Assembly (NCBI RefSeq): GCF_000092105.1
Contig: NC_014148.1
Coordinates: 1,260,001 to 1,292,000, forward strand
DNA from: Planctopirus limnophila DSM 3776
Lineage (GTDB): Bacteria > Planctomycetota > Planctomycetia > Planctomycetales > Planctomycetaceae
Direction: 5' to 3'
DNA length: 32,000 bases
Shown: positions 1,042-26,633 of the stretch, in pieces
Layout of the letters: each line of letters starts with the position of its first letter
Position numbering within the stretch: position 1 is the stretch's first letter
The notes under the pieces: generated by a model
Databases searched by the model: none
Told to the model about the DNA's origin: nothing
What the model saw: the letters and a program-made list of their open reading frames with translations, nothing else
Made by a program: the position numbers and the translations under genes

Positions 1042-1791
1042 ATGTCTGTTTGGGGAAGCAAGATGACATTGACGCAACGAGGGATGGCCCGCTGCTACGC
1101 CGGCCTGATTTTTGCAATCTTGCCTGGACTCGGAAGTGTGGCGCAGGCTGAGATTCCCAGTCTCATTCAGCGACAACCGGCCAGCATCCAGCAGGCGTGG
1201 ATTGAGGTCGAAAAAGTCGTCAACGAGAACGAAAAACTGCCACAACCACTACCAGAACCTTATTTGGCTCGGGGGGATTTGTGGAGTCGAGTTGGCAGTC
1301 ACGAAGATGCGCTCTCCGATTATCTCAAGGCCACAGAGCTCTTCTTCCAGGGCTCGCCCACACCCAGCGAACGGGCTCGGTACCTCTCACAGTTGCAGCG
1401 GGCCCTGGATGCGGTTGTCCAGCAACCCAAACCTCGTTACCCCAATGAGGCTGCGTCTGAATACTCACAAGGACTTTTGGCAAGTCGAAGTGGTGAACAC
1501 ACCATGGCGGAGTCCCACTTTGCTGAAGCTTGTCGCCTGATGCCAGAAGTGCCTCTCTATCGGGTGTATCGTGCTCTCGCCTTGCGCGAACTCGGCCGGA
1601 ATGAAGAGGCCCATCGACAAGTGGCGGCTGCCCTGAGCCTGATCCGCGAGAGCCCACTGGGTGCATCAGCAGAGATGCAGTTGCTCCATCGCGGATTGGA
1701 ACACATTCAAGGTCCGTCACGTCTGTGGCTCTCCCGCGAACTTGAATTGATCAGTAAATCGCCAGCCACGAAGCCGGGCGCAGCTCACTAA
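1042..1791 (+). CDS. Exported TPR-repeat protein
   Basis: Signal-peptide-like N-terminus (AGLIFAILPGLGSVAQA|E). TPR-like helical pairs are present (ARGDLWSRVGSHEDALSDYLKA, AESHFAEACRLMPE, YRALALRELGRNEEAHRQV). In-frame ATGs at 1063 and 1084 are alternative starts. First gene of a co-directional cluster. Confidence 0.7.
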   Translation: MSVWGSKMTLTQRGMARCYAGLIFAILPGLGSVAQAEIPSLIQRQPASIQQAWIEVEKVVNENEKLPQPLPEPYLARGDLWSRVGSHEDALSDYLKATELFFQGSPTPSERARYLSQLQRALDAVVQQPKPRYPNEAASEYSQGLLASRSGEHTMAESHFAEACRLMPEVPLYRVYRALALRELGRNEEAHRQVAAALSLIRESPLGASAEMQLLHRGLEHIQGPSRLWLSRELELISKSPATKPGAAH

Positions 1792-1867
1792 TCCAATCCC
1801 GACATGCGTTGACCGAACGGCCGAGGATGGGCCGTCGAGCCAGATCGACAGGGATGCTTCACCCGCC

Positions 1868-4696
1868 ATGCTAGAGGCTACTCTCGTGAAATTACTTCTC
1901 GGTCGAATTCATCGATACGGACAACCTGTATTTTGGGTGCATTGCCTCGCGCAGGTTGCCGTCTATGCACAGGTTTCTGTCAACGCCACAGCGGCCGAAC
2001 CTCCGGTTTCCTCTCTGTTGAAGGAATCTTCACAGCGTTTGGCGACCGCTCGTGCAGAAGTCGAAAGCTCGCCGGATATCGCACCGCGTGTCCGAAAAAT
2101 GACCTGGCAACTGCTCGTCGGCGAATTGGCTGGCGATGACAGCGTCGGATTGTCCAGTGGTTCGTTTGACGAACTCACTCAAGGACTCAAAGACCTCGAC
2201 CAGTTAATGGCAGAGTTGAAAGCTCAGCCGGAACTCGAACGCGACTTGACGAAGCATTTGCAGCTCACCATGCGATTCGATGCCATGCAGGCGCGCCACG
2301 CAGAATTAGAGAAACAGCGTGAGGTCAGCCGGGCAGATGAGCTGCAGCGTCTGAGCCAGCTTCGGGAGATCAATCGTTCCTACCGCAACCTCGTGCAAAA
2401 CCTGATGCGGCTGCAGACATCACAAATCCTGGGTCAGTCACGGGATGTTGCCAGCCTCGGCGACGATTCGACAAAGCTGATGGCCGACATCGAGAAAGTT
2501 GTGGGGCAGCGACGAGACTTCTACCTCTTTCAGGACGAACCGGCACTGGGAGCCGCCGGGGATAGCGAGTTGAAGCTGGTACGCGAGTTGGATCAACCGC
2601 TGACTGGCGACGTCCGCCGACACCAACTCGCCCTGCAAGCCTACACACTGGCCCAACTGGCCCAGCCCACAACGACCAATTCTCGCGAGAAGCTGGAGTT
2701 GGCGAAGAGCCTGGCCGAAGCTTCACTCGCAGATTCGAATGCGCCCAACGTCCTCGGGCACTGGGCACTGGCCATGGCCAGTCGCGAGCTTGGTCGTCTG
2801 GAAACGATCGTCGCACCTTGGGATCGGGTCGCTCATGAACGGGCCGCAGTTCGATTTGGCCGTGCCAGGCAAAGTCTGATCACCGCCAGGGCACAGATTC
2901 CAGAGGATTCCCAGGAAGCGACATGGATCCAGGAAGTCGATCGACAATTGACAGAACTGACATCACCCGACGCCGCGTTGCAGCAGGCGATGGCTCGGCT
3001 GGTGGCTGGTCAGCCAAACGAAGCGGTGGCGCTGGTCGAAAGATGTGCCACGCTGCATCGCACGCCGCAGGTGGCGGCATTACTCACCGATTGCAAAAGA
3101 TTCGCAGGAGCCGCGCCGTCAGAGATGGATCAACTGACGGATCAGTTATGGGCCAGTCAACTCTGGACGGATGAAGACGATGCCGCCCGGTTGGTTCGCG
3201 GCCGACAGGGTGTCCTTGGCCTCTGGCGTCAACTCTCTGACGAAGGGCAGTCTCAGCGAAATGAGGATTGGCTTCGTACTTTCTCGATACGACTCGACGC
3301 AGCCCTTGCAGACCTGGCATTTGCCGCGAAGTCCGAAAGCTCACAGACGCGACGCATTGCGGAGTGCCATCGTTCGCTGGCGGCTGCCATGCAGTTGTTG
3401 CACAAGCCAGCTTCCAATCCCGAGTTCGCTCGGATGCAGTTAGAGAGTGTCCCCTTGGCTATTGCCGAGTTGGAACAAGACCTCGATCGTGCCCCGCTGC
3501 TCGAACAGTGGATTCGACGCGAGGCGGTGATTGCTGGACGCCTGGCTCAGGGGTACCTGGCGCTCCGGTTGTTGCCCGAATATCAATCGACTGCACCCCG
3601 TGCGTTTTCCAGTGCGGCTGATGCGCTGGCACTGGCTCCTACCGGAATGATGATGCCGCGAGTGCTGGGCACTCCAGTGTTGCAATCACTGTCGGGGCGG
3701 GCCGATGGTGCTGATGCCCGTTTAGCTCAGGAAGAGCAACTGGTAAGGCGTTCTTTGCAACGCCTGCTGCCCGCTGTGGCGGCGATGCAGCTCACACCCT
3801 CCGCAGCGATGGCGACCAATCTGAGCCAGGTCGCTCGCGATCTGGAGGCCCCCGCCGGCAGTATCGACTCTCGCTCCGAACTCGATCCACGCGAGAAGGG
3901 CAACGCCCGCATGACCGCCGCCAGTGAAGTTCGTACCGCCACAGTCATGGCGTTCCTCGCGGCCAACGAACCTGCCGCCGCACTTCGCGAATCGCTGATT
4001 CCCTGGCGCGCCGACTTGAAATTAGAGGATTTGCCTTCGCTCGATGTGAAGTCAATCCGCGAGAGCCTCCTGGACGAGAGCGATCCCGTCCGTAAATCAA
4101 TCGCGGGACTGGCCATCGAAGAGTACGCCGCCTCGATGGTGACGCCGTCCGACAATCGGCTATCGCGTGAGTGGTTGGCGCTCGCAAAGGAACTGCAGCA
4201 GAGCGCCATGCAGCAGTTCGCCGACTCGTCGATCCTGCCGAAGACACATCCGACTGAGGTCGAACTGAACCGCCGGGCCGTTCAGCGATTGACTGATCCT
4301 GAGTTCTATCTCACCCAGTCGCGTAAGCTGGTTTCCGAACTGAGGTTGAACGACGCCCGCGAGTTGCTCGAAGCCGGGAGCCGTCGTCATCCCGATTCGA
4401 TTCCGCTGCGCGAGGCACTCGTTCAAACCCTGATCGATGAGGCCGATCTGCGCCCCGATCAGTCGGCTGAACTCATGGCCCGGGCCATCGAACAACTCAA
4501 AGTTCTGACGGCCAATCCCTCACAGGGCTCTCTGGGCTCTGAATTGAAACTCGCCGAATTGTTTGAACGGGTTCAGAACGAGGCTGGAGCCCAATTGTTG
4601 TACCGGCAGGTGGTGAAACGGGCGACCGATCCCCGTCAGCAGTTGCTTGCCCGCTCTCGTCTGGCCGTGTTGCAAGTCCGAGCCGTGGCTCCTTGA
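1868..4696 (+). CDS. Large (942 aa) exported all-alpha / TPR-like scaffold protein, function unknown
   Basis: Long uninterrupted ORF with an ATG start and a hydrophobic N-terminal segment (VFWVHCLAQVAVYAQV). The composition is Leu/Ala/Glu/Arg/Gln-rich and helix-forming throughout, with TPR-like repeats near the C-terminus. No catalytic motif was seen. Overlapping ORFs in other frames are shorter and low-complexity. Confidence 0.75.
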   Translation: MLEATLVKLLLGRIHRYGQPVFWVHCLAQVAVYAQVSVNATAAEPPVSSLLKESSQRLATARAEVESSPDIAPRVRKMTWQLLVGELAGDDSVGLSSGSFDELTQGLKDLDQLMAELKAQPELERDLTKHLQLTMRFDAMQARHAELEKQREVSRADELQRLSQLREINRSYRNLVQNLMRLQTSQILGQSRDVASLGDDSTKLMADIEKVVGQRRDFYLFQDEPALGAAGDSELKLVRELDQPLTGDVRRHQLALQAYTLAQLAQPTTTNSREKLELAKSLAEASLADSNAPNVLGHWALAMASRELGRLETIVAPWDRVAHERAAVRFGRARQSLITARAQIPEDSQEATWIQEVDRQLTELTSPDAALQQAMARLVAGQPNEAVALVERCATLHRTPQVAALLTDCKRFAGAAPSEMDQLTDQLWASQLWTDEDDAARLVRGRQGVLGLWRQLSDEGQSQRNEDWLRTFSIRLDAALADLAFAAKSESSQTRRIAECHRSLAAAMQLLHKPASNPEFARMQLESVPLAIAELEQDLDRAPLLEQWIRREAVIAGRLAQGYLALRLLPEYQSTAPRAFSSAADALALAPTGMMMPRVLGTPVLQSLSGRADGADARLAQEEQLVRRSLQRLLPAVAAMQLTPSAAMATNLSQVARDLEAPAGSIDSRSELDPREKGNARMTAASEVRTATVMAFLAANEPAAALRESLIPWRADLKLEDLPSLDVKSIRESLLDESDPVRKSIAGLAIEEYAASMVTPSDNRLSREWLALAKELQQSAMQQFADSSILPKTHPTEVELNRRAVQRLTDPEFYLTQSRKLVSELRLNDARELLEAGSRRHPDSIPLREALVQTLIDEADLRPDQSAELMARAIEQLKVLTANPSQGSLGSELKLAELFERVQNEAGAQLLYRQVVKRATDPRQQLLARSRLAVLQVRAVAP

Positions 4697-4797
4697 TCCC
4701 TCCCGATACTTCGACAATTGAACCGTCGGAATGATCCCGTGATGGCTACCTCCCAGGCCGGTTTCCCTTCGCCACGTTTCTTTCCAGGAGATAAACA

Positions 4798-6885
4798 ATG
4801 CCAATCCGATTAAATCGCCGCGAAACCTGGCTCAACACCGCAAAAGTGCTCCTTGGGCTCTTCGTGCTGATCGCCACTGGTGACCTCACTGCCAGCGCGG
4901 CCGATAAGAAGTCACTGATCTACGTGAAGGACAAGAACGGCCACACGACATCACTCCTTCAAAAGGTCGTCGTGACGAGCGGCAAGGCGACACTTGCCAG
5001 TTCACCGAAGGAACCGGGCGAACCGATCGAGCCGTGGGCGATTTTCTTCCGTATCAAAAACGAAGACGGCTCCACCAAAGCGGTCAATGGCCGCGTGCGT
5101 GTGGGCGATTCCGAAGGCAATCCTCTCGGCTGGATTGGCGAACAGGACGTGCGTGAGTGGGATACCCGGTTCGTCCTCGAACCGATTGACCCTCAGAAGG
5201 AACGCGCCTTCGAGTTGAACGTGACGGGCGGCGGCACAGCCCGCCAGAATGCGACGCCGGAAGGCAAACGCCGCTACGCCTTGATCACGCAAACTCCCGC
5301 CGCTGAAAAGGGAGACGACACGGAGTATCCGGTGGTCGTTTATGCGGGCAACGTGCAGGGTGTCGGTCAGCAGGGAACCTTGAACAAACAGCGGAACGAT
5401 TTAGAAAACGTCAAACTGGAACTGATGTTCGTCATCGAATCGACCGACTTCATGGTCGAGAAATACGACAATCGCCCGCTGTTCGACTATCTCAAGGATG
5501 CGATTCGCGAAACGGTCGATGTCATCCGCGAGGACAGTGGCCTGAAGGGCGCGATCAAACTGGGCTTTACCGAGTACCAGGACAATGTGCCGAAGGCAAA
5601 TTTCACCAGTCGCCTTACGTGCGACCTGACGGACAACTACGACCAGTTTCTTTCACGCTTGGACGTTTTGGCCGCAACCGAACTCAAGGACGATTTTCCG
5701 GATGATGGGCTTGCGGGGCTCAATGAAGCCGTTCAGAAAGCCACTTGGTCCGGCAATAGCGTGAAGCATGTGATTCTCCTAGGGTCAGCTTCATTCCAGC
5801 TTAGCGAACGTGGCCGAAATCCTCCGCAATCCGGAGGACGAATGAATTTGCTCGAACCCAAAACTCGCGGTTACAACAGCACCGGACTCTCTGTACCCCA
5901 ACTGATTAGCCGCGCGCGTCCGCAAGGGGGATCCGACTCCCGAGCACGAATCACTAAAACTTTACATGCCATGTTGCTTGGGCGGGATGTGATCAGAGAT
6001 CTGAAACTTGATGATGATCTGTTGCAACTATGTGAGACGATTGCCAATTCCAGTGATGATGGACTTGAACCGATTTTCACGATGCTCACGAATAGATTGG
6101 GCAAGGAGGCGGGAGTCAAAACGCTCGTTCTCCTTCACACAATCCAAGTCATCAAGAATCAGCGACAGTTAGCAGAGTCACAATACGGCCAACTCGCCAA
6201 AAACAATGGCGAAGCGGATGGCATCTACATGGCCGTCGAGCCCAGTGGCGCGAAGGTGACTGAGGCGGCCCGCGCACTATCGGCCAAGTTGAAGGAATCA
6301 TTCGTGGCGCTGGAGAGCGTGCGCGAAGGGAAAGGCTTGCCAGCTGCCTCAACCAACGAAATCTCGCAGCCACTCTACACACTCGTCGGAGCGGCGGCCG
6401 AGAAATTCAAGGACTCACCCGTATTAACCGGAACAGCCACCGTGCGCGATAAGCGGGGACGTGAAGTCGCCTTCAAGAAGGTCATGGTCTCCGAGCAGGA
6501 GTTGCGCCACGTGAAGAGTACCCTCGACGCCCTCTTCACAAAATTCAAATCGAAGAGCAGCAAGGCCGATCGACAGGACGTCGGCAGTATTCTCAACGAT
6601 TTGAAAGAGGTCCTCGCCGAAGCCGGTGCCGGGCAGGAATTGACGGCCGAGGTTAAGCTCAAGGATTTGATCTCGGACCTGCCGCTCAAGACCGCAGCAC
6701 TCGACACCTCTCCGGCAGACTTGGCCCTCATGACGACCGAGGCCTTCAAACAATGGCTCGAACGGATCGAAGCAGCCGTCTTCCGTATTGACGATCTGCT
6801 CACCAGCAAACAGGACTGGCTGACACTTTCGGAAAAAGCGGTCAATGAAAAGTTTACGTTTCTGCGACTCAGCGAACTTCCCTGA
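4798..6885 (+). CDS. Secreted vWA-like domain protein with a degenerate MIDAS
   Basis: AGGAG lies 7 nt upstream of the ATG, and the signal peptide reads LFVLIATGDLTASA|AD. The central region follows the von Willebrand A strand/helix pattern (LELMFVIESTDFM ... IKLGFTEYQD ... DDGLAGLNEAVQKA ... KHVILLGSAS). The DxSxS metal site is replaced by ESTDF. The C-terminal region is helical. Confidence 0.8.
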   Translation: MPIRLNRRETWLNTAKVLLGLFVLIATGDLTASAADKKSLIYVKDKNGHTTSLLQKVVVTSGKATLASSPKEPGEPIEPWAIFFRIKNEDGSTKAVNGRVRVGDSEGNPLGWIGEQDVREWDTRFVLEPIDPQKERAFELNVTGGGTARQNATPEGKRRYALITQTPAAEKGDDTEYPVVVYAGNVQGVGQQGTLNKQRNDLENVKLELMFVIESTDFMVEKYDNRPLFDYLKDAIRETVDVIREDSGLKGAIKLGFTEYQDNVPKANFTSRLTCDLTDNYDQFLSRLDVLAATELKDDFPDDGLAGLNEAVQKATWSGNSVKHVILLGSASFQLSERGRNPPQSGGRMNLLEPKTRGYNSTGLSVPQLISRARPQGGSDSRARITKTLHAMLLGRDVIRDLKLDDDLLQLCETIANSSDDGLEPIFTMLTNRLGKEAGVKTLVLLHTIQVIKNQRQLAESQYGQLAKNNGEADGIYMAVEPSGAKVTEAARALSAKLKESFVALESVREGKGLPAASTNEISQPLYTLVGAAAEKFKDSPVLTGTATVRDKRGREVAFKKVMVSEQELRHVKSTLDALFTKFKSKSSKADRQDVGSILNDLKEVLAEAGAGQELTAEVKLKDLISDLPLKTAALDTSPADLALMTTEAFKQWLERIEAAVFRIDDLLTSKQDWLTLSEKAVNEKFTFLRLSELP

Positions 6886-6921
6886 CCACCATCTTGACGA
6901 AGCAATCAGACGGGCCAATCC

Positions 6922-7818
6922 ATGCACAATCACTCAACCAATGAACGACAGTTCGAGTCTCCGCCCGAGATCGTGCTCGAACTCGACGGCCTTGAACAGC
7001 GGCTGTACGATCCCGAACGGGGTGAGGAATTCACCGTACGGGTCTCTCAACCACTGCGCATTGCCAGCCGCAATCTGGTTGCGCTGCTCGGTCCCAGTGG
7101 CTGCGGCAAGACAACTCTGCTGACAATTCTTGGTCTGTTACGAGCTCCGTCCCATCCACAGACATTACGCCGTTTCGTCATGCGTACGCCCAACCCCAAC
7201 GGGTTCTGGGAGGAACACGACCTGCGTTCGCTCTGGCTGAGTGGAGCACAGCGGAGCATCGAACGCTTGCGGCGTCAACGGATCGGCTTCGCGTTACAAA
7301 GTGGCGAACTCCTCCCTGCGCTCACAGTCCGCGAAAATATCGCCACGCCTTTGATGCTCAACGGTGTCACGTCAGCCGTCTGCCGCACTCGGGTCGATGA
7401 ATTGCTCGAATCGTTCGCACTGAACGGGGCACCACGAGCCAATGGGAAAGGTCGGCGGATTGATCAATCGCGGATCAACAAGTTATCGGGCGGAGAGTAC
7501 CAGCGCGTCGCTCTCGCCCGGGCCATCGTCCACCGTCCCACACTGCTCTATGTCGATGAACCGACAAGTGCTCTGAACCGGGACCTGGCCTGGGGAGCCT
7601 TGCAGCAGGTGCGGTCGCTCCAGTGTAGCCCCAACTCACACGGGGCAGCCGTGATGATCACGCATGACGAACAACTCGCCGCCGCCTTTGCTGACATGAT
7701 CGTGCGGATGGCTCCCGTCCCCGGTCAATCAGCCGGCGAGGTGGTCGAGATCGTTGCGAATGTACCCTCCGCGGCCGCAGAAGTGCCGGAAACAACCCTC
7801 ACGGAGTCTGCAACATGA
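6922..7818 (+). CDS. ABC transporter ATP-binding protein (MacB/LolD/FtsE-like subfamily)
   Basis: Walker A GPSGCGKTT, Q-loop region IGFALQSGELLP, ABC signature LSGGEYQRVALARA, Walker B LLYVDEPTSAL and H-loop VMITHD are all present. The stop overlaps the next gene's start (ATGA). Confidence 0.93.
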   Translation: MHNHSTNERQFESPPEIVLELDGLEQRLYDPERGEEFTVRVSQPLRIASRNLVALLGPSGCGKTTLLTILGLLRAPSHPQTLRRFVMRTPNPNGFWEEHDLRSLWLSGAQRSIERLRRQRIGFALQSGELLPALTVRENIATPLMLNGVTSAVCRTRVDELLESFALNGAPRANGKGRRIDQSRINKLSGGEYQRVALARAIVHRPTLLYVDEPTSALNRDLAWGALQQVRSLQCSPNSHGAAVMITHDEQLAAAFADMIVRMAPVPGQSAGEVVEIVANVPSAAAEVPETTLTESAT

Positions 7819-9917
7819 TGCGGCGCTGGCAGTTTTACTTACGACTCGGCTGGCTTGATCTGGTTCGCTTGTGGCCGACAACTAGGCATCACGCCATCAT
7901 TGTCGCCGGAATCTGCCTGCCGATTCTCATGTTGCTGGGAATCAAACGCGGGCATGTAGCCGAATTGCGTCGCGATCTCGTGACCAGTCCGATCGGACGG
8001 CAGGTCACCTTCTGGTCGGCTCGCAAGGGCGAGCTGATGGATCGTACTGCCGTTGCCCGTCTCAGTAGTGAGCTGCCATCAGTCGAAGTCATCATTCCCG
8101 AAATTCAGCGTGTCGTCAGATTATCTCGGACTGAGTCGATCTCTTCCGCTTCATCGCCAAACGAGGAAATGGGCATTTCCGCCACACTCTATGCCACCCG
8201 CCCGGGCGATCCGATGCTGGCTCAACTCGGGATAGCAGCACCTGCGGCAGGTGAGCGCTCGATTGTGCTGGGAGAAGGACTGGCCCGGCGGCTGCAAGTC
8301 GGCGCAGGTCAACAGGTCGATCTCCATCTGACGCGCGGTCGCGATCATCAGGAAGAACAAGTCTCACTGACCTGTACCATCCTGGCTGTGATGCCCACCG
8401 AGCAACAGGATGCCGCCATCGGCTACCTCGACCTCGACCTGCTCGACGCCTGCGAGCAGTTCGTGCGCGGTCAACGGGTGGAGTCCTTGAACTGGCCCAG
8501 CGCCCGCACTCCGGCACGCGACGGCTATTCGAGCTACCTCATCTTCTGCGAACGCGAGAACGACCTGACAGAAGACGATCGCAAGTTTCTCGCCGATCGA
8601 GGCTTCTTATTGACAGATCGAACGGCTGAACCACCCACTCCGCTCGACAGGTTGCTCGCACCCGGCTCGCGAGAAGAGCTGCGGATCTATGAAGCTGCGA
8701 CGACTCAAACCAGCCAGCGCCCAGAACCGCGTCTATTCTTTGCACCATCTGAACTCAGTGAACAGACGACTGCCGACGATGTCATCCTCCCTTGGAACCC
8801 ACCCGCCAGTGCCGAACACGAAGGTCGCCCATGGATATTAGCCGGTCTCTCTCTGCCACGAAGAACATGGCTGCGTGAGTACTTCGTTCAGGCCGATTTG
8901 CCCTTCGATTACGATGCCGAACCGTTTCAGGCGCGGACACTCGCACCGCTGGAACCGATCTCGCTGGTCTGCCTGCTCGACGCGAAGCAACGTCTCGCCA
9001 TTCCCTGCGTTGGTAGAAATAGCTCTTCTTCGGAAACACTCACATCACCCGCTGAGTCTCCCTCGGACGCATCACCTCCCGGCGATTCCTCAACCGAACC
9101 AATCGCTCCCGCCAGTGACCTGAATCCTGCCAGTGCCCTCGCTCCCGCCAGTGCTCTCGCTCCCGCCAGTGCTCTCGCTCCCGCCAGTGCCCTCACTCCC
9201 GACAATATCACGACAAACAATCGCCAGGCCTCTCCCGGTTTACCCGACATTGCCATCGTACCAGCGAACCTTACCGCGTGGCTCGCGGCTTATCGCGCCA
9301 GCATGGCCGTCTACGACCCGACGATTCAACTCTTTGTACCGTTGCCACAGTCACCTGTGTACGACCGCGCCCGGCTTTACGCCCGCACCATCGACGATGT
9401 CCCCGCCGTGGTCTCGGCGCTCTCGAACCAGCAGTTTGCCGTCATGTCCGAGACAGGCCGCATTGCCGAGATTCATCGCCAGGACCGTTCCCTGCAACTG
9501 CTGGTGTGGGTGGTCGGCATTGGAGTCTTCCTGTTCGGCATCGTGACTGTCGTCAGCGTGTTGATGGATTCGACCGACCGCAAGCGAGGCACAATCGGCA
9601 TTCTGCGTGTGATGGGTGTCTCACCTTGCGGCATCTTTGTGTCGATCCTGCTCCGATCAGCCATGATCGGTCTCTTCGCTGCCGCCTTAAGTCTGGCCTG
9701 TGGCGTGGGATTGGCCATAGCTCTTGAATGGCAACCCGCTTCGACAGCCCACTGGTTGAGCTGGAAACCGGTCGTCCATATTGAGTTGCATCCCTGGGAC
9801 ATGGCCATTGTCGCAGCCGGTGCATTGCTCTGTTGTGGCCTTGGTTCGCTTCCTCCCGCGTGGCGAGCCAGCCGTCTCGATCCATTCGATGCCATCGTCG
9901 AAGGTCGCTTTCGTTGA
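7815..9917 (+). CDS. ABC transporter permease, FtsX/MacB-type, with a very large periplasmic domain
   Basis: There is 4-bp start/stop overlap with the ATPase gene. One N-terminal TM helix (AIIVAGICLPILMLLGI) is followed by an extracytoplasmic region of about 470 aa. The C-terminus is a three-TM FtsX-type bundle (LLVWVVGIGVFLFGIVTVVSVL..RKRGTIGILRVMGVS..LLRSAMIGLFAAAL..). Confidence 0.88.
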   Translation: MMRRWQFYLRLGWLDLVRLWPTTRHHAIIVAGICLPILMLLGIKRGHVAELRRDLVTSPIGRQVTFWSARKGELMDRTAVARLSSELPSVEVIIPEIQRVVRLSRTESISSASSPNEEMGISATLYATRPGDPMLAQLGIAAPAAGERSIVLGEGLARRLQVGAGQQVDLHLTRGRDHQEEQVSLTCTILAVMPTEQQDAAIGYLDLDLLDACEQFVRGQRVESLNWPSARTPARDGYSSYLIFCERENDLTEDDRKFLADRGFLLTDRTAEPPTPLDRLLAPGSREELRIYEAATTQTSQRPEPRLFFAPSELSEQTTADDVILPWNPPASAEHEGRPWILAGLSLPRRTWLREYFVQADLPFDYDAEPFQARTLAPLEPISLVCLLDAKQRLAIPCVGRNSSSSETLTSPAESPSDASPPGDSSTEPIAPASDLNPASALAPASALAPASALAPASALTPDNITTNNRQASPGLPDIAIVPANLTAWLAAYRASMAVYDPTIQLFVPLPQSPVYDRARLYARTIDDVPAVVSALSNQQFAVMSETGRIAEIHRQDRSLQLLVWVVGIGVFLFGIVTVVSVLMDSTDRKRGTIGILRVMGVSPCGIFVSILLRSAMIGLFAAALSLACGVGLAIALEWQPASTAHWLSWKPVVHIELHPWDMAIVAAGALLCCGLGSLPPAWRASRLDPFDAIVEGRFR
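9129..9200 (+). repeat. In-frame 18-bp tandem repeat x4 (GCCAGTGCYCTCRCTCCC) encoding (PASALA)n
   Basis: Four consecutive units lie at 9129, 9147, 9165 and 9183, with a partial unit just upstream. They fall inside the periplasmic domain of the FtsX-type permease. Confidence 0.9.
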
Positions 9918-9977
9918 CCATGCCCTGCCATCTGAACCCGACCTGTTTTTAACGTCTTTGTCACCATAGGCTCATTC

Positions 9978-11525
9978 ATGCACTCCAAAAATCGACGACT
10001 GCAAACAGGACCATTGTTACTCCTGTTCTTGGCCCTGGCAGGATGGGGAATGCCTCGAACCGTCGCTCATGCCGCACCACCGGGCGAACTGTTCGAGTTG
10101 CCATTAATAGGGACCGCACCTGCTCAGACGTTGCGATTTCGCTTTTGCCCCGCCGGAACAATTCGGCCAGGCCAACCGACACGCGACGCTTCAGGCAGCT
10201 CCGCCAACGCGCTGCCCCCCATTTCCCTCCGTGAATTTTATCTGGGTGAGACAGAGGTCACGCTGGCTCAGTTCCGCGCAGTCCTGGGTGCACCGGGAAT
10301 GGCAGTCCTCAAGAAGGAAGCAGCGAAGTTTCAGGCCATGAACCCCCAGCTGTTCGATCTCATCCAACAGGGTGAATCGGAACCAGCCTTCTATGTCGGG
10401 CTGGAGGGTGCCGTTCAGTTCTGCCTTCGCGTACAAGCCGGCATCGACGAAGAGCGGATGAAACAGGCCGCACCGTCAATCGAAGCTCGACGGATCAGGT
10501 TGCCGTCGCATGTCGAATGGCAGTATGCCGCCCGGGCCATTGCCGACGCGGGTCAACAGTCGCGGTTACCTCACTTCAATCGCAATATCCCTTTCGCCCA
10601 GTTGTCTGCCGGTACGCAGGAAAAGTGCCGCGAAGTCTGGTCAAAACTGGGACGGACCGATCCCTTTGTTGGCTCGCAGGAACAGCTGCTTGGTCTCACA
10701 GCAGCAGTCGGACAGGAAGAGCAGGCCAAGGTCAAAGACATTCTGGCCGAGTGGTTCACGAAACTGCTGGGTGTCCCTGCTCGTAACGCCAGTGGATTGG
10801 GCGCCATCAGGCCTGTGGCCCAGGCTCAGGCCAATGCCTGGAACATTCACGATAGCCACGACAATCTGACCGAATGGGTGATCTGGGCAACAACTTCGGA
10901 TCGACGCGATGAACTTTGGCAATCGCTCGCCTCCAAAGTCGCGACCGGAGCTTCGCTGGATGGCCAGGGCGATCTCTTCCTCGCGGGTGGTTTCTTCGCT
11001 GAGCCCTATCACGGAGAGAACATTCTCTCCCATTTCACCCTGTGGGGCGGCCCGAAACTGACCGAGGGGGCACCACAGCCATTCGAATATGAATCCGGTT
11101 TGGTCGGAGAGTTTTCTCCAGGCTTTCGCGTGTTGATGGAGCGGAAAATTGCCTCAGACTGGCTGTTTGCCCTGCGACGAGGACTCTACGCTCAAGGCCA
11201 ATGGCAACCGTCGGCCCGAACTTACCTCGACGAGAGTCAGCGATTGTTGGATGAACTCGCCGACGCCAATCATCCCGGCATCGCAACCATCGAGTTTTAT
11301 CGCACTCTTCAAACGCTCGATTCAGGCGGGAAATCACGTGCCGCAAAGATGTTCGATCGTCTCGCCCAGGCGAAACCCGAAGCTCCAGCACGAGCAAAAC
11401 CCAACTACGCTGCGCTACTGGACGACACCCCCTCACCCGCTGCAACCGTCGAAGCCACTCCCGTCAACGACGACGCCCTCTTCTGGCAGACACTGTCGAT
11501 GGCTCAATCAGCCCGTCCCAATTAA
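9978..11525 (+). CDS. Exported FGE-sulfatase (SUMF1)-fold protein, divergent and probably non-catalytic
   Basis: Signal peptide LLLLFLALAGWGMPRTVAHA|A. FGE-family landmarks are present (FYLGETEVTLAQFRAVLG; RLPSHVEWQYAARA; NAWNIHDSHDNLTEWV; FSPGFRVLMER). There is a roughly 100-aa insertion and no CxxxxC catalytic pair. The C-terminal extension is low-complexity and helical. Confidence 0.8.
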   Translation: MHSKNRRLQTGPLLLLFLALAGWGMPRTVAHAAPPGELFELPLIGTAPAQTLRFRFCPAGTIRPGQPTRDASGSSANALPPISLREFYLGETEVTLAQFRAVLGAPGMAVLKKEAAKFQAMNPQLFDLIQQGESEPAFYVGLEGAVQFCLRVQAGIDEERMKQAAPSIEARRIRLPSHVEWQYAARAIADAGQQSRLPHFNRNIPFAQLSAGTQEKCREVWSKLGRTDPFVGSQEQLLGLTAAVGQEEQAKVKDILAEWFTKLLGVPARNASGLGAIRPVAQAQANAWNIHDSHDNLTEWVIWATTSDRRDELWQSLASKVATGASLDGQGDLFLAGGFFAEPYHGENILSHFTLWGGPKLTEGAPQPFEYESGLVGEFSPGFRVLMERKIASDWLFALRRGLYAQGQWQPSARTYLDESQRLLDELADANHPGIATIEFYRTLQTLDSGGKSRAAKMFDRLAQAKPEAPARAKPNYAALLDDTPSPAATVEATPVNDDALFWQTLSMAQSARPN

Positions 11526-11604
11526 CGGAATGTTTTATCGTCCCGTCAGCCCGTTGCACCACCCGCCGTATCACCCCGGTTACCAAAGAAATCAAAGAAG
11601 ACAG

Positions 11605-11636
11605 GGTGGCCCAGACGTCGCCTTGCACGTCTGGGT
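11605..11636 (+). repeat. 32-nt hairpin repeat GGTGGCCCAGACGT(C/G)GCCTTGCACGTCTGGGT, copy 1
   Basis: Perfect 9-bp stem CCCAGACGT/ACGTCTGGG (11610-11618 and 11627-11635). It lies about 85 nt after the stop of the 9978-11525 gene. It is 31/32 identical to the copy at 12976-13007. Confidence 0.85.
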
Positions 11637-11941: not shown

Positions 11942-11969
11942 TTGTTCAGGCTCTCTTGTCTTTTATAAT
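11942..11969 (+). promoter_or_regulatory. Sigma70-like promoter candidate for the FGE paralogue (TTGTTC-N16-TATAAT)
   Basis: TTGTTC at 11942-11947 and TATAAT at 11964-11969 sit in an AT-rich leader about 35 nt upstream of the preferred ATG (12004). I do not know the promoter consensus for this phylum well. Confidence 0.25.
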
Positions 11970-12003
11970 AGTATTGATTTACAGCTTCACGATGAGGTGT
12001 GGT

Positions 12004-12900
12004 ATGAGCGAACGACAGTTTTATCTCTGGAATAGTGTGATTCTTGCCAATCTGATCTTTAGTGTGGTGTTAGTCGCTCCAGTGGACGCACAGACGTTGA
12101 CCACACCTTCCTCCCTTGAGTCCCCGTTCACAGCTGATGGAGCCAAAGCCGGTCAGGAGGCATGGGCCAAGCATCTGGGGAAGTCTGTTGTTGAGAAAAA
12201 TACAATCGGCATGGATCTGGTGTTGATTCCCCCAGGTAAATTTCGCTTGGGAAGTCCCCCCGGTGAAAATGGTCGTGATACCGACGAAAAACAGGTCGAC
12301 GTAACGCTCACCCAGCCCTTCCGGCTGGGCCGCACGGAAGTGACCCTGGGACAGTGGAGGCAGGTGATGGGAACCATTCCCTGGAACCGAGAAAACTTCA
12401 TCAAAAAAGGGCCAGACTATCCTGCGACATTTGTCAGCTGGGAGGATGCCCGGGCGTTTTGTGAGAAGTTGAGTCAGATAGAAGGCAAGACATATCTGTT
12501 ACCGACGGAAGCCCAGTGGGAGTGGAGTTGCCGGGGAGGCACGACAACCCGGTTCTCGATCCCCAATGAGAAGTATCTCACGGAATACGCATGGTTTAAT
12601 GATAATGCCGCCGACGAAAAGTATGCCCACCGCGTGGGCCTAAAGCGGCCCAATCCGTTTGGCCTGTCCGACATTCATGGGAACGCATGGGAATGGTGTC
12701 AGGATTGGTACGGAGAAAGATATTCCATAATTAGTTCGATCGACCCGTGTGGCCCATCGTCTGGGAGTGATCGTGTGATTCGCGGTGGGAGTTGGGACAG
12801 TATCACGAGGGGCATTCGCTCGGCTGAACGCGGCGGGGGCTCGCCAGACGCCGGGAGCTACCTCGTCGGTTTCCGTGTATCGAGGATTGAATTACCCTGA
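12004..12900 (+). CDS. Formylglycine-generating enzyme family (SUMF1/FGE-fold) protein, exported, lacking the catalytic Cys pair
   Basis: Canonical family motifs are present: MDLVLIPPGKFRLGSP, TEVTLGQWRQVMG, PATFVSWEDARAFCEKLS, LLPTEAQWEWSCRGG, NPFGLSDIHGNAWEWCQDWY, RVIRGGSW and GFRVSR. The track ORF starts at a TTG (11956). The ATG at 12004 is preferred because it follows GAGGTG and gives a clean signal peptide (LANLIFSVVLVAPVDA|Q). The ATG at 11992 is also possible. Confidence 0.9.
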   Translation: MSERQFYLWNSVILANLIFSVVLVAPVDAQTLTTPSSLESPFTADGAKAGQEAWAKHLGKSVVEKNTIGMDLVLIPPGKFRLGSPPGENGRDTDEKQVDVTLTQPFRLGRTEVTLGQWRQVMGTIPWNRENFIKKGPDYPATFVSWEDARAFCEKLSQIEGKTYLLPTEAQWEWSCRGGTTTRFSIPNEKYLTEYAWFNDNAADEKYAHRVGLKRPNPFGLSDIHGNAWEWCQDWYGERYSIISSIDPCGPSSGSDRVIRGGSWDSITRGIRSAERGGGSPDAGSYLVGFRVSRIELP

Positions 12901-12975
12901 GCCGCTTAAACCTTTTAACTTTTGAACTTTTTCTGGATTGCTGTTTTTGACTTGATAAATCCTGCCTTCGCGTGG

Positions 12976-13197
12976 GGTGGCCCAGACGTGGCCTTGCACG
13001 TCTGGGTGACGACAGTCACAAGAAACACTCTCCAAGCAGTTCAGCCACCTCACCAACTCCTCGATCACTTCAATCCCTACCCCTGATTTCCACCGGCCAG
13101 TATCATTGGTCGATGTGTCTCGATCGAGATTGATGGCCACCCAACACGCTTTTAAAGGCACAGCTGTGCCTGCCAATTCTGCCAACCCCTCGTATCC
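12976..13197 (+). repeat. Composite intergenic element, copy D (hairpin type 2 plus conserved body)
   Basis: It starts with the CCCAGACGT...ACGTCTGGG hairpin. It then shares these blocks with copies at 13767 and 15311: CAGCCACCTCACCAACTCCTCGATCACTTCAATCC, GGTCGATGTGTCTCGATCGAGATTGATGGC (with the perfect 12-bp palindrome TCTCGATCGAGA at 13118-13129) and CAATTCTGCCAAC. Confidence 0.8.
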
Positions 13198-13203
13198 AAA
13201 AAA

Positions 13204-13725
13204 CTACTTGGCGGGTGAATCCAATTGACGAATTCGTTCCAGGATGCGCAGCGGTTGCTCGCGACCGAATTCTTTTGGTGCATTGAATGCGGCAAACTTG
13301 CAAAACCGGACAAAAGCGGCCCGTTGAGCTGTGTTGTAAAGTTTCGCAAAGGAAATGTCGTCTCCTCTTGATCCGCGAATCAATCCCGAGAGGTCGAAGA
13401 GAAAAGCGTCATACATCAATCCATCTCGAATTCCCTCTTGAAGAACTGCGCGAAGGATCGCCGGCGAATAGAACTTTTTGGCAGCCGGGTTCATGAAGAA
13501 GACCGCATCTGTCCGGGCGAAGAGATGATCGACGGGCACACGGCGCCAGTCAGTCCGTTCAGCGGTCTTTGCCAAAGAGAGTTCGTGACAATCAAAACCG
13601 TAGCTCGCATGGAAGGCCGCTTCATACAATGTTGTTCCATCATGCAACTCGACCCCCGCGAACGCACCCTCGATGAAGCGGATCAGCCATTCCCGCAACG
13701 TCATCGACCGCGTCTCCATATCCAT
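13204..13725 (-). CDS. Hypothetical cytoplasmic protein (small immunity-like protein, family not identified)
   Basis: Only long ORF in this interval, with no signal peptide. The motif block VPVDHLFARTDAVFFMNPAAKKFYSPAILRAVL resembles small orphan immunity-type proteins, but this is an impression only. The track start at 13755 is GTG and lies 11 nt from the repeat hairpin. In-frame ATGs at 13725, 13719 and 13704 are more plausible, so the start is uncertain. Confidence 0.6.
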   Translation of the reverse strand: MDMETRSMTLREWLIRFIEGAFAGVELHDGTTLYEAAFHASYGFDCHELSLAKTAERTDWRRVPVDHLFARTDAVFFMNPAAKKFYSPAILRAVLQEGIRDGLMYDAFLFDLSGLIRGSRGDDISFAKLYNTAQRAAFVRFCKFAAFNAPKEFGREQPLRILERIRQLDSPAK

Positions 13726-13766
13726 CTTTCTGCGTTCAGCGCCAAAGTAAAACACTCACGCCCCGG

Positions 13767-13960
13767 GTGCCACTGCTGGCTTGCCAGCAGTGCTCCTCTG
13801 ATCCTCCAGCCAACTCAATTACATCTCCTATCTGACAATCTCCCACTCACTAGCTGCCACCAGCCATCTCAACTGGTCGATGTGTCTCGGTCAAGATTGA
13901 TGGCTTCTCTTCACGGTTCCTGAAACTACTGCGGGACCAGCCAGTTGCTTCACCCGCCGC
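13767..13960 (+). repeat. Composite intergenic element, copy A (hairpin type 1 plus conserved body)
   Basis: GTGCCACTGCTGGCTTGCCAGCAGTGCTCCT carries a perfect 10-bp stem, CACTGCTGGC (13771-13780) / GCCAGCAGTG (13783-13792). It is followed by ..GATCCTCCAGCCAACTCA.., CAGCCATCTCAACTGGTCGATGTGTCTCGGTCAAGATTGATGGC and ..CCAGCCAGTTGCTTCACC. Confidence 0.8.
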
Positions 13961-14010
13961 CAAGGTGACAACCCGATAATCAGTTCAGCACATTTATTCA
14001 TCATATCGAA

Positions 14011-14883: not shown

Positions 14884-14934
14884 TAACTCTTCCTTTCATG
14901 ATCGATCCCGCTTGCGAATGGAAACCCGCCCAGT

Positions 14935-15003
14935 GTGCCACTGCTGGCTTGCCAGCAGTGCTCCTCGGATCCTCTAACCAACTCATCCACCTCACCGATC
15001 AGG
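14935..15003 (+). repeat. Composite intergenic element, copy C (truncated: hairpin type 1 plus first conserved block only)
   Basis: GTGTGCCACTGCTGGCTTGCCAGCAGTGCTCCTCGGATCCTC is identical over about 42 nt to copy B. It continues ..CCACCTCACCGATCA, and similarity is then lost. Confidence 0.75.
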
Positions 15004-15027
15004 CGACAGGTGTATCACATTCGCCGG

Positions 15028-15258: not shown

Positions 15259-15310
15259 TTTGTGGCTGGATTATCCTGCTCTAACACGACGACATGGCGA
15301 TGCACTCTGT

Positions 15311-15510: not shown

Positions 15511-15529
15511 AAACGTCGTTTGCAGGCCC

Positions 15530-16564: not shown

Positions 16565-16681
16565 CCGGAAGATATTTAACAAGATTGAAACCTCCCGATC
16601 CTCGCAAACACACTTAACCGTACTGTCACATTCGACGAGACAGAAAAAACATTTCACTTGTTACTCCCGTTCGATAAACTC

Positions 16682-26621: not shown

Positions 26622-26633
26622 TTTGCGGGCGGA

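Follow-up and report, generated by a model that had tools for sequence, protein, structure and literature searches.

A conserved six-gene cassette combining a type VII ABC pair with exported vWA, TPR and FGE-fold proteins in Planctopirus limnophila

Type VII ABC systems are described as performing mechanotransmission with the periplasmic partners EnvC, LolA, MacA and TesA (PMC12646458; PMC5985334; PMC7668044). For FtsEX and YbbAP, ATP hydrolysis in the cytoplasm is described as driving a conformational change of the periplasmic partner, not transport (PMC7668044, PMC12646458). An ABC pair of this kind was found in P. limnophila within a cassette of six adjacent genes, located at positions 1042-11525 of the window (the whole 32-kb stretch of DNA that was analysed). 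The features of the locus are as follows.

972 to 999, + strand: sigma-70-like promoter match (CTAACA-16-TAAAAT), weak, upstream of g1
1042 to 1791, + strand: g1, exported TPR protein of 249 aa (Pfam TPR_2/TPR_12; signal-like N-terminus)
1868 to 4696, + strand: g2, helical protein (TPR-like or coiled-coil) of 942 aa, no family assignment
4798 to 6885, + strand: g3, exported vWA protein of 695 aa (AF2 model, Foldseek, Pfam VWA_4 in relatives)
5968 to 6180, + strand: hypervariable, recombining segment of g3, aa 391-461 (DNA and protein comparisons)
6181 to 6885, + strand: C-terminal domain of g3, aa 462-695 (pN, model, Foldseek)
6922 to 7818, + strand: g4, cytoplasmic ABC ATPase of 298 aa (Pfam ABC_tran, 5e-22; intact motifs)
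7815 to 9917, + strand: g5, type VII ABC permease of 700 aa (Pfam FtsX, hydrophobic segments)
9103 to 9222, + strand: 18-nt tandem repeat within g5, encoding a (P-A-S-A-L-A)n spacer
9978 to 11525, + strand: g6, exported non-catalytic FGE/C-type-lectin-fold protein of 515 aa, PorK/GldK-like (Pfam FGE-sulfatase)
11604 to 11636, + strand: palindromic hairpin repeat of 33 nt (repeat search, fold energy)

Comparison with described systems

All six ORFs are intact in the window and are separated by spacers of 76, 101, 36 and 60 nt, with a 4-nt overlap between g4 and g5 in ATGA. The packed + strand layout reported in the earlier note (36-101-nt spacers, one ATGA) was reproduced exactly for every ORF. 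Signal peptides were assessed by eye, and canonical-looking ones were seen in g1, whose signal-like N-terminal sequence ends ...LIFAILPGLGSVAQA/EIP, and in g3 and g6. The signal looks weaker in g2, and g5 has transmembrane (TM) segments.

The ATPase g4 retains the Walker A (GPSGCGKT), signature (LSGGE), Walker B (LLYVDE) and H-loop (ITHD) motifs. Among solved structures, YbbA is its best match and LolD (3.5e-23) is also close, and the lantibiotic-resistance ABC ATPase PsdA is among its NBD relatives; it scored under the cut-off for every NCBIfam equivalog, with DevA as the top match. In g5, an FtsX domain was detected at residues 566-690 (Pfam, 50.7 bits against a cut-off of 25.5), and hydrophobic segments at residues 25-43, 562-580, 607-635 and 663-681 correspond to one TM, a periplasmic domain and three TMs. 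The g5 profile matched LolF/LolE/LolC (1e-11 to 1e-9), YtrF (1e-8) and MacB (1e-4) in the PDB, where family profile positions 67-167 were aligned with the periplasmic domain of LolC. MacB_PCD was found below threshold at residues 73-200 (24.2-26.2 bits against a cut-off of 27), and about 300 aa of extra sequence in the periplasmic domain gave no match in the profile search. The FtsX domain, the 1+3 TM arrangement and the LolF/E/C and LolD relatives support the FtsEX/LolCDE/MacB architecture proposed earlier, and on its sequence features the g4/g5 pair belongs to the type VII ABC superfamily (FtsX/LolC/MacB fold). The periplasmic domain had been estimated at about 470 aa; the TM1-TM2 stretch of g5 in fact measures about 515 aa, including a low-complexity Pro/Ala/Ser spacer of about 70-100 aa that varies in length among orthologues.

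The cassette resembles FtsEX-EnvC/PcsB/RipC and YbbAP-TesA in that a type VII ABC pair is combined with periplasmic protein partners, and it would share their working principle. The partners in those systems are peptidoglycan-hydrolase activators or a thioesterase, whereas those in the cassette are vWA, TPR/helical and lectin-fold proteins; moreover, FtsEX is a division gene and the cassette an accessory element. The FtsE equivalog was missed by g4 (TIGR02673, 106.8 against 264.85), and no LytM, NlpC/P60, CHAP or amidase domain was found in the cassette by Pfam. Identity with FtsEX was rejected on this score and on the absence of a peptidoglycan-hydrolase or activator partner.

With LolCDE/LolDF, the g4/g5 pair shares the 4-TM FtsX-type fold, the periplasmic domain between TM1 and TM2 and the separate ATPase. 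It differs in the size of that domain (about 230 aa in LolC against about 515 aa in g5), and the cassette encodes no lipoprotein and adds four unrelated, strictly co-conserved exported partners. The Lol equivalogs were missed (TIGR02212, 53.5 against 362.45; TIGR02211, 98.4 against 307.75), no lipobox cysteine was seen in the five exported cassette proteins, g1, g2, g3 and g6 among them, and neither LolA nor LolB was found in any locus. The scores and the lack of a lipoprotein client and of LolA/LolB led to the rejection of LolCDE identity. The likeness to MacAB-TolC/DevBCA consists of the weak similarity of g5 to the periplasmic core domain of MacB (24-26 bits) and of DevA as the top match for g4, which scored 112.1 against a cut-off of 295.8. 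No membrane-fusion or outer-membrane-factor gene was found in the window cassette or the annotated loci, and this identity was dismissed for want of an HlyD-type membrane-fusion protein or an outer-membrane factor.

Among the remaining partners, an orthologue of g1 lies directly 5' of g2 in 14 loci. The g2 protein gave nothing above threshold in Pfam or NCBIfam; its orthologue in locus L015 has a C-terminal TPR, and the gene is fast-evolving (24-37% identity between loci; dN/dS 0.13-0.14). In catalytic FGE, two cysteines that bind copper lie between the RGGS and GFR motifs. Residues 57-212 of g6, which fall in its N-terminal half only, matched FGE-sulfatase (Pfam, 49.3 bits against a cut-off of 23.3), and the EW, GG and GFR motifs of the fold are recognisable in the family alignment; a cysteine between GG and GFR was present in 0/11 orthologues. 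Because the catalytic cysteine pair is missing, g6 was ruled out as a formylglycine-generating enzyme, as the earlier note had anticipated in calling it a non-catalytic FGE-fold protein. The g6 profile matched PorK at 1e-18, TvpA at 6e-16 and FGE at 3e-10 in the PDB. It thus appears to be a binding or structural protein, nearer to the structural protein PorK/GldK and to TvpA, a variable protein of a diversity-generating retroelement (DGR), than to FGE. A helical extension is present at its C-terminus.

Like PorK/GldK, g6 has an FGE fold that is non-catalytic and interrupted by a long insertion; unlike them, it has no lipobox. The GldK equivalog was missed (TIGR03525, 34 against 350), and no cassette protein matched PorL/M/N or GldL/M/N. 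Identity with the T9SS protein PorK/GldK was rejected, since the score, the lipoprotein signal and the PorL/M/N neighbours are all lacking. No T9SS is known in planctomycetes.

Two further systems share the vWA component. The MoxR-vWA ternary conflict systems combine an NTPase, a vWA protein and an FGE-fold binding domain, as the cassette does (PMC7159879), and both are linked to TIR in related proteins and distributed patchily, planctomycetes included. Those systems are cytoplasmic and have a MoxR AAA+ ATPase, a VMAP/iSTAND component and effectors fused to the vWA protein, whereas everything but the ATPase is extracytoplasmic in the cassette, and its NTPase is the ABC/FtsX pair. With no MoxR and with an exported g3 that has no effector domain, MoxR-vWA-VMAP/iSTAND identity was rejected. 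The Bat operon is likewise an envelope-associated set of vWA, TPR and ATPase proteins, and the vWA domain of BatB matches g3 in Foldseek. In contrast to it, the cassette has no MoxR, DUF58 or TM-anchored BatA-type vWA protein and has the ABC/FtsX pair and the FGE-fold protein. A search for AAA_3/MoxR or DUF58 found none in the cassette or its annotated flanks, and Bat/aerotolerance identity was rejected because both are absent.

Overall, Pfam, NCBIfam, PADLOC, PDB and literature searches did not place the set in Lol, FtsEX, MacAB/Dev, Bat, T9SS or defence systems. The earlier statement that it matches no described system agrees with the profile searches, in which no Bat, Lol, gliding/T9SS or PADLOC system was recovered. 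In PADLOC-DB 2.0, g4 showed only generic ABC ATPase similarity (mad3, mad8, AriA), and the other five proteins showed nothing. The six-gene set is a new variant on the type VII ABC theme.

The vWA protein g3 and its hypervariable segment

The g3 protein consists of a signal peptide (aa 1-34), a beta-rich N-domain (aa ~36-200), a vWA domain (aa ~200-395), hypervariable helices and a conserved C-domain ending in an invariant ...LP; a 19-residue hydrophobic segment lies at its N-terminus. Window g3 itself had no Pfam match, and 48 of 67 relatives matched VWA_4. In Foldseek, the AF2 model (pLDDT 84) matched the vWA domains of PilB, PitA, SpaC, integrin beta and BatB with a probability of 1.00. The model, the Foldseek matches and the relatives together bear out the vWA-like fold suggested earlier for this 695-aa protein. 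The vWA domains of pilus adhesins are among the top Foldseek matches.

The MIDAS region of the wider g3 family reads V-I-D-T-T-x-S-M and G-D-A-S, and that of the window clade is degenerate (E214-S-T216-D-F218 and L-G-S-A-S). A complete MIDAS (DxSxS ... T ... D) was absent from the alignments of the window clade, in which two ligands are lost, so classical metal-dependent ligand capture is doubtful.

Residues 391-461 form well-folded helices in the model. The corresponding DNA (5968-6180) could not be aligned with that of loci L004, L097 and L098, although the flanks are 78-97% identical. Local pN reached 0.5 and pS 0.84 in this segment, compared with a background pS of 0.2-0.3, and column entropy was about 2.9 bits. 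Proteins P0001 and P0002 share 28% identity across aa 391-461 and 99% elsewhere, and the region of aa 261-461 has been exchanged between lineages. Since pS is raised along with pN, the pattern indicates imported divergent alleles and no demonstrable recent positive selection. Neither 5968-6180 nor g6 is repeated elsewhere in the 32-kb window as a DGR template would be, and no reverse transcriptase was present among the window ORFs scanned; a DGR target was rejected for this window on both counts.

No other part of the cassette is as conserved as the C-domain (aa 462-695), which has pN = 0.00 against L097 and L098. This domain was modelled with a pLDDT of 81, and no PDB match better than E = 0.3 was obtained by Foldseek and no match by Pfam. 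In the distant homologues P0067, P0208 and P0068, the g3 N-domain, with or without vWA, and the C-domain lie outside a TM helix, which joins this exported module to a Ser/Thr kinase or TIR domain in the cytoplasm. Read from their domain order, the TIR and kinase fusions are receptor architectures.

Conservation, proposed role and alternatives

The complete set, in unchanged gene order, was recovered from 14 further loci with unrelated flanks and 21-65% identity, derived from Planctomycetaceae/Gimesia, Gemmataceae, Pirellulales and unassigned metagenomes; the short contigs L012, L016, L018 and L023 contain the g3-g4-g5 core as well. The co-occurrence check suggested in the earlier note thus turned out positive, and as the operon-like unit is conserved as a whole, its interpretation is not refuted on this point. 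The dN/dS values of 0.08-0.18 for each of the six genes revealed purifying selection. The cassette has a rare and patchy distribution, with 10 loci recovered from 185,579 species genomes in a pattern-limited scan, and occupies different genomic sites. Two copies were found in one MAG (L010, L011), and locus L002 is a decaying copy, with g2 and g4 split, within an island carrying a TrwC relaxase, a zeta toxin and IS66. In L004, a relative that is 95-99% identical, g1 and most of g2 are replaced.

We propose that the six genes constitute one accessory, ATP-powered envelope module, for which extracytoplasmic conflict or self/non-self recognition is the most likely role (probability about 0.45). 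A g4 dimer on a g5 dimer would presumably act as a type VII ABC mechanotransducer that hydrolyses ATP in the cytoplasm, and no substrate would be pumped through the inner membrane. The motion would be passed via the oversized periplasmic domain of g5 to a putative complex of g1, g2, g3 and g6, in which g1 and g2 may serve as TPR/helical scaffolds and g6 as a lectin-fold, PorK-like member. As the candidate recognition subunit, g3 would derive its specificity from the hypervariable helical patch beside the vWA domain, and its invariant C-domain and ...LP tail would probably dock on the permease. ATP-driven motion may then load, reset or release the bound partner, and phage or toxin entry and cell-cell recognition are possible settings. 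No nuclease, protease, pore-former or NADase was recognisable in the cassette as an effector, which counts against a conflict role. The housekeeping flanks of some loci, the PADLOC null result, the raised pS and the lost MIDAS ligands were counted on the same side.

It is unlikely, though conceivable, that the cassette more specifically provides immunity or recognition outside the cytoplasm, as the periplasmic equivalent of the NTPase-vWA-lectin-fold conflict systems that operate in the cytoplasm. As the periplasm is devoid of ATP, a type VII ABC motor would supply the energy. If this were true, a secreted vWA protein with a recombining patch would recognise phage, toxin or a non-kin cell, and the same sensor module would signal directly in sister lineages via a fused TIR or Ser/Thr kinase.

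The earlier note favoured a machine in which the ABC motor builds, remodels or exports a surface structure; this could be stalk fibrils, a holdfast or an adhesin layer, scaffolded by the TPR/helical proteins and with the PorK-like and vWA proteins as its structural subunits. Systems for envelope assembly commonly include TPR scaffolds, the partners are all exported and non-enzymatic-looking, the nearest relative of g6 is PorK/GldK, which forms rings as a structural component of a secretion/motility machine, and some loci have ordinary flanks. The formation of fibril-bundle stalks and rosettes by P. limnophila (PMC3035269) was also counted in favour. However, a rare, patchy, duplicated, decaying and variably placed cassette is unexpected of a core structural machine, cargo or polymer-synthesis genes are not co-conserved, the T9SS partners PorL/M/N are absent, and the hypervariable mosaic segment and the TIR/kinase receptor fusions are left unexplained. 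This specific role was left without support and is considered rather unlikely. An accessory recognition, signalling or conflict module fits better because of the rarity and patchiness, the duplication, the decay, the varied sites, the recombining g3 segment and the TIR/kinase fusions, and conflict or self/non-self recognition is more likely than core or housekeeping envelope assembly.

Alternatively, g4/g5 might work in a Lol-like manner and extract from the inner membrane either a co-encoded exported protein or a client with a lipid anchor. The client, e.g., g3 with an uncleaved signal anchor, would be handed to the TPR/helical proteins and delivered to the outer membrane or cell surface, amounting to adhesin display. 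This agrees with the solved structures nearest to g5 (LolF/E/C) and to g4 (LolD and YbbA), with the 19-residue hydrophobic segment of g3, which could serve as an anchor, and with the membrane anchoring of the g3 module in its fused homologues; the complex of YbbA is also described as extracting hydrophobic compounds (PMC12646458). The score far under the equivalog cut-off (53.5 against 362 bits), the five exported proteins without a lipobox cysteine, the absence of a LolA/LolB-like gene and a g5 periplasmic domain about twice the size of that of LolC, with its extra region of about 300 aa matching no fold, make such an extractor quite unlikely. Export or detoxification of the MacB/BceAB type, in which the ABC pair clears the periplasm or membrane of a peptide, antibiotic or toxin with the other four proteins as accessory binders, is improbable. 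MacB and BceAB-type resistance pumps do belong to the type VII ABC systems (PMC5985334), and PsdA is related to the g4 NBD; however, genes for a membrane-fusion protein, an outer-membrane factor or a BceRS-type two-component system are not co-conserved, g5 has 4 TMs against 10 in BceB, and four large, strictly co-conserved exported proteins are atypical of such pumps. The decaying copies elsewhere (split g2 and g4 in L002; loss of g1 and most of g2 in L004) could suggest fortuitous adjacency or a remnant that is no functional unit. This has a negligible probability and is effectively refuted by synteny and purifying selection, as order and strand are kept in the 14 other loci even where identity falls to about 25%, and the six window ORFs are intact with dN/dS of 0.08-0.18.

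Genomic neighbourhood and boundaries

Some copies of the cassette adjoin mobile or defence-related genes: a type I-C CRISPR array and an integrase (L017), IS21 (L015), a C5 DNA methylase (L007) and a GAP1-N2/GYF system (L100), of a type described by Kaur et al. 2020 (PMC7159879). In the window, PADLOC identified a PDC-S31 candidate defence gene 5 kb from the cassette. Loci L094-L096 and L011 have ordinary housekeeping flanks, and the association with defence islands is anecdotal.

About 600 nt of AT-rich non-coding DNA lies 5' of g1. Four promoter-like sites were counted against 3.4 expected, and the match at 972-999 is statistically indistinguishable from chance. Within the 430-nt gap downstream of g6, the hairpin repeat at 11604-11636 begins 79 nt past the g6 stop and belongs to repeat family D7. 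It has a 12-bp stem, a fold energy of -21.2 kcal/mol (z-score -2.2) and no U-tract, and probably marks the 3' end of the six-gene unit. A second copy of this 33-nt palindromic repeat is located at 12975-13007.

Layout and conservation of the cassette

The six plus-strand open reading frames that the earlier note had described were found in the window with exactly the same boundaries, as listed below.

1042-1791, +, g1, TPR protein, 249 aa
1868-4696, +, g2, helical protein, 942 aa
4798-6885, +, g3, vWA protein, 695 aa
6922-7818, +, g4, ABC ATPase, 298 aa
7815-9917, +, g5, FtsX-type permease, 700 aa
9978-11525, +, g6, FGE/PorK-like protein, 515 aa

The intergenic spacers are 76, 101, 36, and 60 nt, and g4 and g5 share a 4-nt overlap (ATGA). 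About 600 nt of AT-rich non-coding DNA lies 5' of g1, and the 430-nt gap 3' of g6 contains a 33-nt palindromic repeat (11604-11636) that forms a 12-bp hairpin. Promoter and terminator scans at the cassette gave nothing informative.

Loci for comparison were fetched by exact-protein look-ups and by pattern scans of genome and metagenome collections. As a result, 68 homologues of g3 were found, and all named ones came from Planctomycetota. The proposal that the six genes belong together was upheld, since all six recur, with order and strand preserved, in another 14 loci (L001 from Gimesia maris, L002, L006/L094, L007, L008/L095, L010, L011, L013 from Pirellulales, L096, L097, L098, L099, L100, and L014/L015), of which L010 and L011 are two copies in one Gemmataceae MAG. 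The short contigs L005, L012, L016, L018, and L023 carry as much of the cassette as fits, with g3-g4-g5 always present. The co-conservation is strict, and identity to the window is given below for each gene.

Identity of cassette genes to the window in planctomycete loci (L001-L013) and in the most distant cassettes (L014-L018, L023)
Gene; planctomycete loci; most distant cassettes
g1; 30-43%; 33%
g2; 24-37%; 25%
g3; 38-72%; about 24-28%
g4; 51-67%; 37-45%
g5; 40-60%; 25-38% over long alignments
g6; 26-47%; 21-29%

The flanks of the cassette are different in every genome, which places the boundaries of the unit at g1 and g6. Among 185,579 species genomes the cassette was present in at least 10 loci, this count being a lower bound because the scan was limited by its patterns. 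The small number of loci, the two copies in one MAG, the split genes of L002, and the partial replacement in L004 mark the cassette as accessory in its behaviour.

Products of the cassette and variation of the vWA protein

The g4 protein matched Pfam ABC_tran with intact ATPase motifs, and g5 matched FtsX above the threshold and MacB_PCD just under it. In g5, about 515 residues separate one N-terminal hydrophobic segment from three C-terminal ones, and among them is a Pro/Ala/Ser spacer of variable length, for which an 18-nt tandem repeat codes. A Pfam search with the fragment inserted between these segments returned nothing usable, and word-based homologue searches with g5, as with g2, returned few distant relatives, with uninformative names.

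Searches of the g3 sequence against Pfam, NCBIfam, and PDB gave no match, and Pfam searches with its separate N- and C-domain fragments gave nothing usable. The AlphaFold2 model, built with 50 homologues (mean pLDDT 84), comprises a signal peptide that looks canonical by eye, a beta-rich N-domain (about aa 36-200) giving an SH3b-like impression, a vWA domain (about aa 200-395), a helical region, and a mixed alpha/beta C-domain. The vWA-like nature proposed for g3 in the earlier note was confirmed by Foldseek, as the full-length model retrieved only vWA domains from the PDB, all with a probability of 1.0; the matches include the pilus adhesins PilB, PitA, and SpaC, integrin beta I-like domains, and BatB. 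An exhaustive profile search collected 1447 representatives at E <= 1e-3 and 150 at E <= 1e-30, and Pfam VWA_4 was matched by 48 of the 67 representatives sampled from the wider family. In this wider family (about 600-650 aa), the canonical motifs of the metal site (MIDAS) are V-I-D-T-T-x-S-M and G-D-A-S; the corresponding positions in the clade of the window read E-S-T-D-F and G-S-A-S, indicating that two metal ligands have been lost. The C-domain, modelled on its own with a pLDDT of 81, had no PDB match better than E = 0.3 by Foldseek and none in Pfam. It is the most conserved part of the cassette (pN = 0.00 against two relatives) and terminates in an invariant ...LP.

A hypervariable segment lies between the vWA domain and the C-domain. 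The DNA from window position 5838/5970 to 6180/6196 could not be aligned in three close relatives, whereas its flanks were 78-97% identical. In a comparison of the g3 homologues P0001 and P0002, identity was 99% in the N- and C-parts, 77% over residues 261-390, and 28% over residues 391-461. Residues 261-390 are also phylogenetically incongruent (P0004 and P0008 share 91% identity there vs 76% in the N-part), an incongruence that indicates exchange by recombination among lineages. Over residues 260-465, pN was elevated and so was pS, and the rise of pS along with pN points to allele import instead of a simple, recent dN excess. The model predicts helices for the segment with confidence (pLDDT 87-96), and it is thus no disordered linker. 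A diversity-generating retroelement (DGR) was rejected as the origin of the variability, with no template repeat found within the window.

The g3 module also occurs in receptor-type proteins. In P0067, a Ser/Thr kinase is followed by a TM helix and the full module; in P0208, a kinase and a TM helix precede the N-domain and C-domain without the vWA domain; and in P0068, a TIR domain and a TM helix precede the full module. The gene of this TIR fusion (contig L003) stands alone next to a transposase, with ABC genes absent nearby. These fusions mean that a transmembrane signalling protein can use the g3 module as its extracytoplasmic input. The module has been shuffled further in P0210 (JGI metagenome), where the g3 N-domain and vWA region occupy residues 2087-2388 of a giant protein of TPR repeats (2670 aa).

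In g6, Pfam detected a partial, N-terminal FGE-sulfatase match. An alignment of 11 orthologues revealed the complete set of FGE-fold motifs, with a long stretch inserted among them and a helical extension behind, and no cysteine at the position of the FGE catalytic pair, in agreement with the earlier view that the protein is non-catalytic. The best profile match was PorK/GldK (1e-18), followed by the DGR variable protein TvpA (6e-16) and FGEs (3e-10), and a Pfam search with the C-terminal fragment gave nothing usable. Accordingly, g6 is a binding or structural lectin-fold protein and not an FGE-type enzyme. The g1 protein matched Pfam TPR, and g2 is a fast-evolving TPR-like/coiled-coil helical protein for which Pfam, NCBIfam, and PDB sequence searches gave no match and Pfam searches with its thirds nothing usable. 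By eye, g1 and g6 have canonical-looking signal peptides and g2 a less typical one.

A second full-length FGE-sulfatase-family protein (g7; Pfam E 1e-42) is encoded downstream at 11956-12900 (+). It carries RGGSWDSITRGIRSAER and hence likewise lacks the catalytic Cys pair, and its gene is flanked on both sides by copies of the 33-nt hairpin repeat (the copy in the gap after g6 and another at 12975-13007). It was rejected as a seventh member because synteny extends to the closest relative (L097) alone and the other loci lack the gene. Two consecutive FGE-fold genes instead of one were found at 14844-18135 of L015, the first encoding a protein with an extended disordered N-terminus in addition to a complete FGE-sulfatase match.

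Known systems and the proposed role of the cassette

The cassette belongs to the type VII ABC superfamily (ATPase and permease of the FtsX/LolC/MacB fold) and would work like such a system. The earlier statement that it fits no described system holds for Lol, FtsEX, MacAB/Dev, Bat, T9SS, MoxR-vWA ternary systems, PADLOC defence, and, as judged within the window, DGR targets, in none of which it could be placed. The Bat operon was rejected because MoxR and DUF58 are absent, and PADLOC anti-phage defence because the matches were generic ABC ones. In a literature search, no paper turned up in which vWA or FGE-fold proteins are partners of a type VII ABC system. The cassette is thus a well-defined, conserved, uncharacterised machine; its motor is known, its partner set and probable use are new, and its hypervariable vWA subunit and TIR- or kinase-fused relatives are unexpected.

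Mechanotransduction is the working principle of FtsEX-EnvC, LolCDE-LolA, MacAB-TolC, and YbbAP-TesA, as described in PMC12646458, PMC5985334, and PMC7668044. In the best-supported mechanism for the cassette, the ABC pair would likewise be a mechanotransducer, and the proteins encoded with it would form the periplasmic complex on which it acts. The architecture, the strict co-conservation, and the lack of efflux partners are observed, and we infer both the formation of this complex and the direction of the coupling. A role in conflict or self/non-self recognition, rather than in housekeeping assembly, is favoured by three features: the receptor-like fusions, the hypervariable patch with its recombination, and the accessory pattern of occurrence. 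We tentatively give this combined reading a probability of about 0.45. Its main weaknesses are the lack of a recognisable effector, the degenerate MIDAS in the clade of the window, and the anecdotal nature of the neighbourhood evidence.

A machine for assembling or remodelling a surface structure, as favoured in the earlier note, appears unlikely in the light of the same three features; T9SS/gliding was rejected as a candidate, the likeness to PorK being confined to g6. For an extractor of the Lol type that releases a co-encoded protein, the profile searches are relevant: the g5 family came nearest to LolF/LolE/LolC (1e-11 to 1e-9), next to YtrF and then to MacB, and the nearest relatives of g4 were YbbA and LolD. 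The NCBIfam equivalogs LolC/E, LolD, FtsE, DevA, and MacB were all far under their cut-offs for g4 and g5, on which ground Lol, FtsEX, Dev, and MacB were rejected, and the pair is a distinct type VII ABC subfamily. Such an extractor is a quite improbable alternative. A detoxifier of the MacB/BceAB type has a slim chance of being correct, and membrane-fusion and outer-membrane-factor genes were found in none of the cassette loci. That the genes form no functional unit is scarcely credible, as the dN/dS of each of the six (0.08-0.18; Nei-Gojobori, against two close relatives) indicates that they are functional.

Type VII ABC systems are known to serve division (FtsEX-EnvC), lipoprotein sorting (LolCDE), efflux (MacAB-TolC), and lipid extraction (YbbAP-TesA), and a fifth strictly co-conserved partner set (vWA, TPR/helical, PorK-like) would broaden the uses of these motors. 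If the hypervariable vWA patch and the receptor fusions reflect recognition of invaders or kin, the proposed mechanotransducer would be a rare case of ATP-dependent recognition outside the cytoplasmic membrane in a diderm bacterium. Planctopirus limnophila DSM 3776 is a genetically tractable, rosette-forming model planctomycete, which makes the predictions for the cassette directly testable.

Genomic neighbourhood

The neighbourhood is mixed from locus to locus, and the defence-island context is anecdotal and not statistically established. In L002 (1-9970 and 12193-13109), the island around the cassette copy is mobile, encoding a TrwC relaxase, a zeta toxin, and ParA and carrying IS66; the g2 and g4 of this cassette are each split into two ORFs, so this copy is probably decaying. 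In L017 (98-7553 and 17323-20585), a complete type I-C cas operon is accompanied by an array of about 14 CRISPR repeats ending 61 nt before the first gene of the cassette, and on the other side of the cassette are genes for a tyrosine integrase and a D12 adenine methylase. Here g1 is absent and the g2-like gene is shorter (790 aa) and weakly similar. Directly 3' of the L100 cassette, on the opposite strand, 13495-21935 encodes a MotA/ExbB-like protein, two GYF_2 proteins, and a GAP1-N2 GTPase-type protein; the GAP1-N2/GYF combination has been described as a planctomycete conflict system (PMC7159879). Other conflict or mobile neighbours are IS21 (L015), a C5 DNA methylase (L007), and an integrase (L099), and ordinary flanks were seen in L094, L095, L096, and L011. 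A phage origin was rejected, as no relatives of g3 or g5 were found in IMG/VR viral contigs.

In L004 (Planctomyces sp. MAG D1_MAG_00040; 3534-4558), an unrelated 242-aa ORF replaces g1 and the first 625 codons of g2, and the remaining cassette genes are 95-99% identical; this is either a genuine deletion or replacement or an artefact of MAG assembly. An ECF sigma factor and a Ser/Thr kinase are divergent from g1 in L094 (3615-5689) and L099 (1-2124, with WD40), two cassettes that are only distantly related, and kinase-WD40 or WD40 genes adjoin the cassette in L095 (17360-22139) and L010 (685-3528). These neighbours echo the kinase fusions of the g3 module and may reflect a regulatory link, but such genes abound in planctomycetes.

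In the window, a DUF2971 protein at 16682-17509 (-), 5 kb downstream of the cassette, matched PDC-S31 (E 3.6e-57), a candidate defence family of PADLOC. The surrounding stretch (about 13100-18000) has a lower GC content (0.47-0.53), and three families of repeated palindromic intergenic elements are present in it at 13.1-15.5 kb, another copy being at 22030. As a whole, the stretch resembles a small genomic island, 5 kb away from the cassette. At 17763-19850 (-), a Trypsin_2 protease (365 aa), which also matches PADLOC RT-Protease_XI models, adjoins an alpha/beta-hydrolase (329 aa). The cytochrome c'-like ORF upstream of the cassette (25-426, +; 99% conserved in L004), the two DUF1559 (SBP_bac_10) proteins typical of planctomycetes (25701-29100, -), and the MMPL-family transporter beyond them (29580-31907) look like ordinary context.
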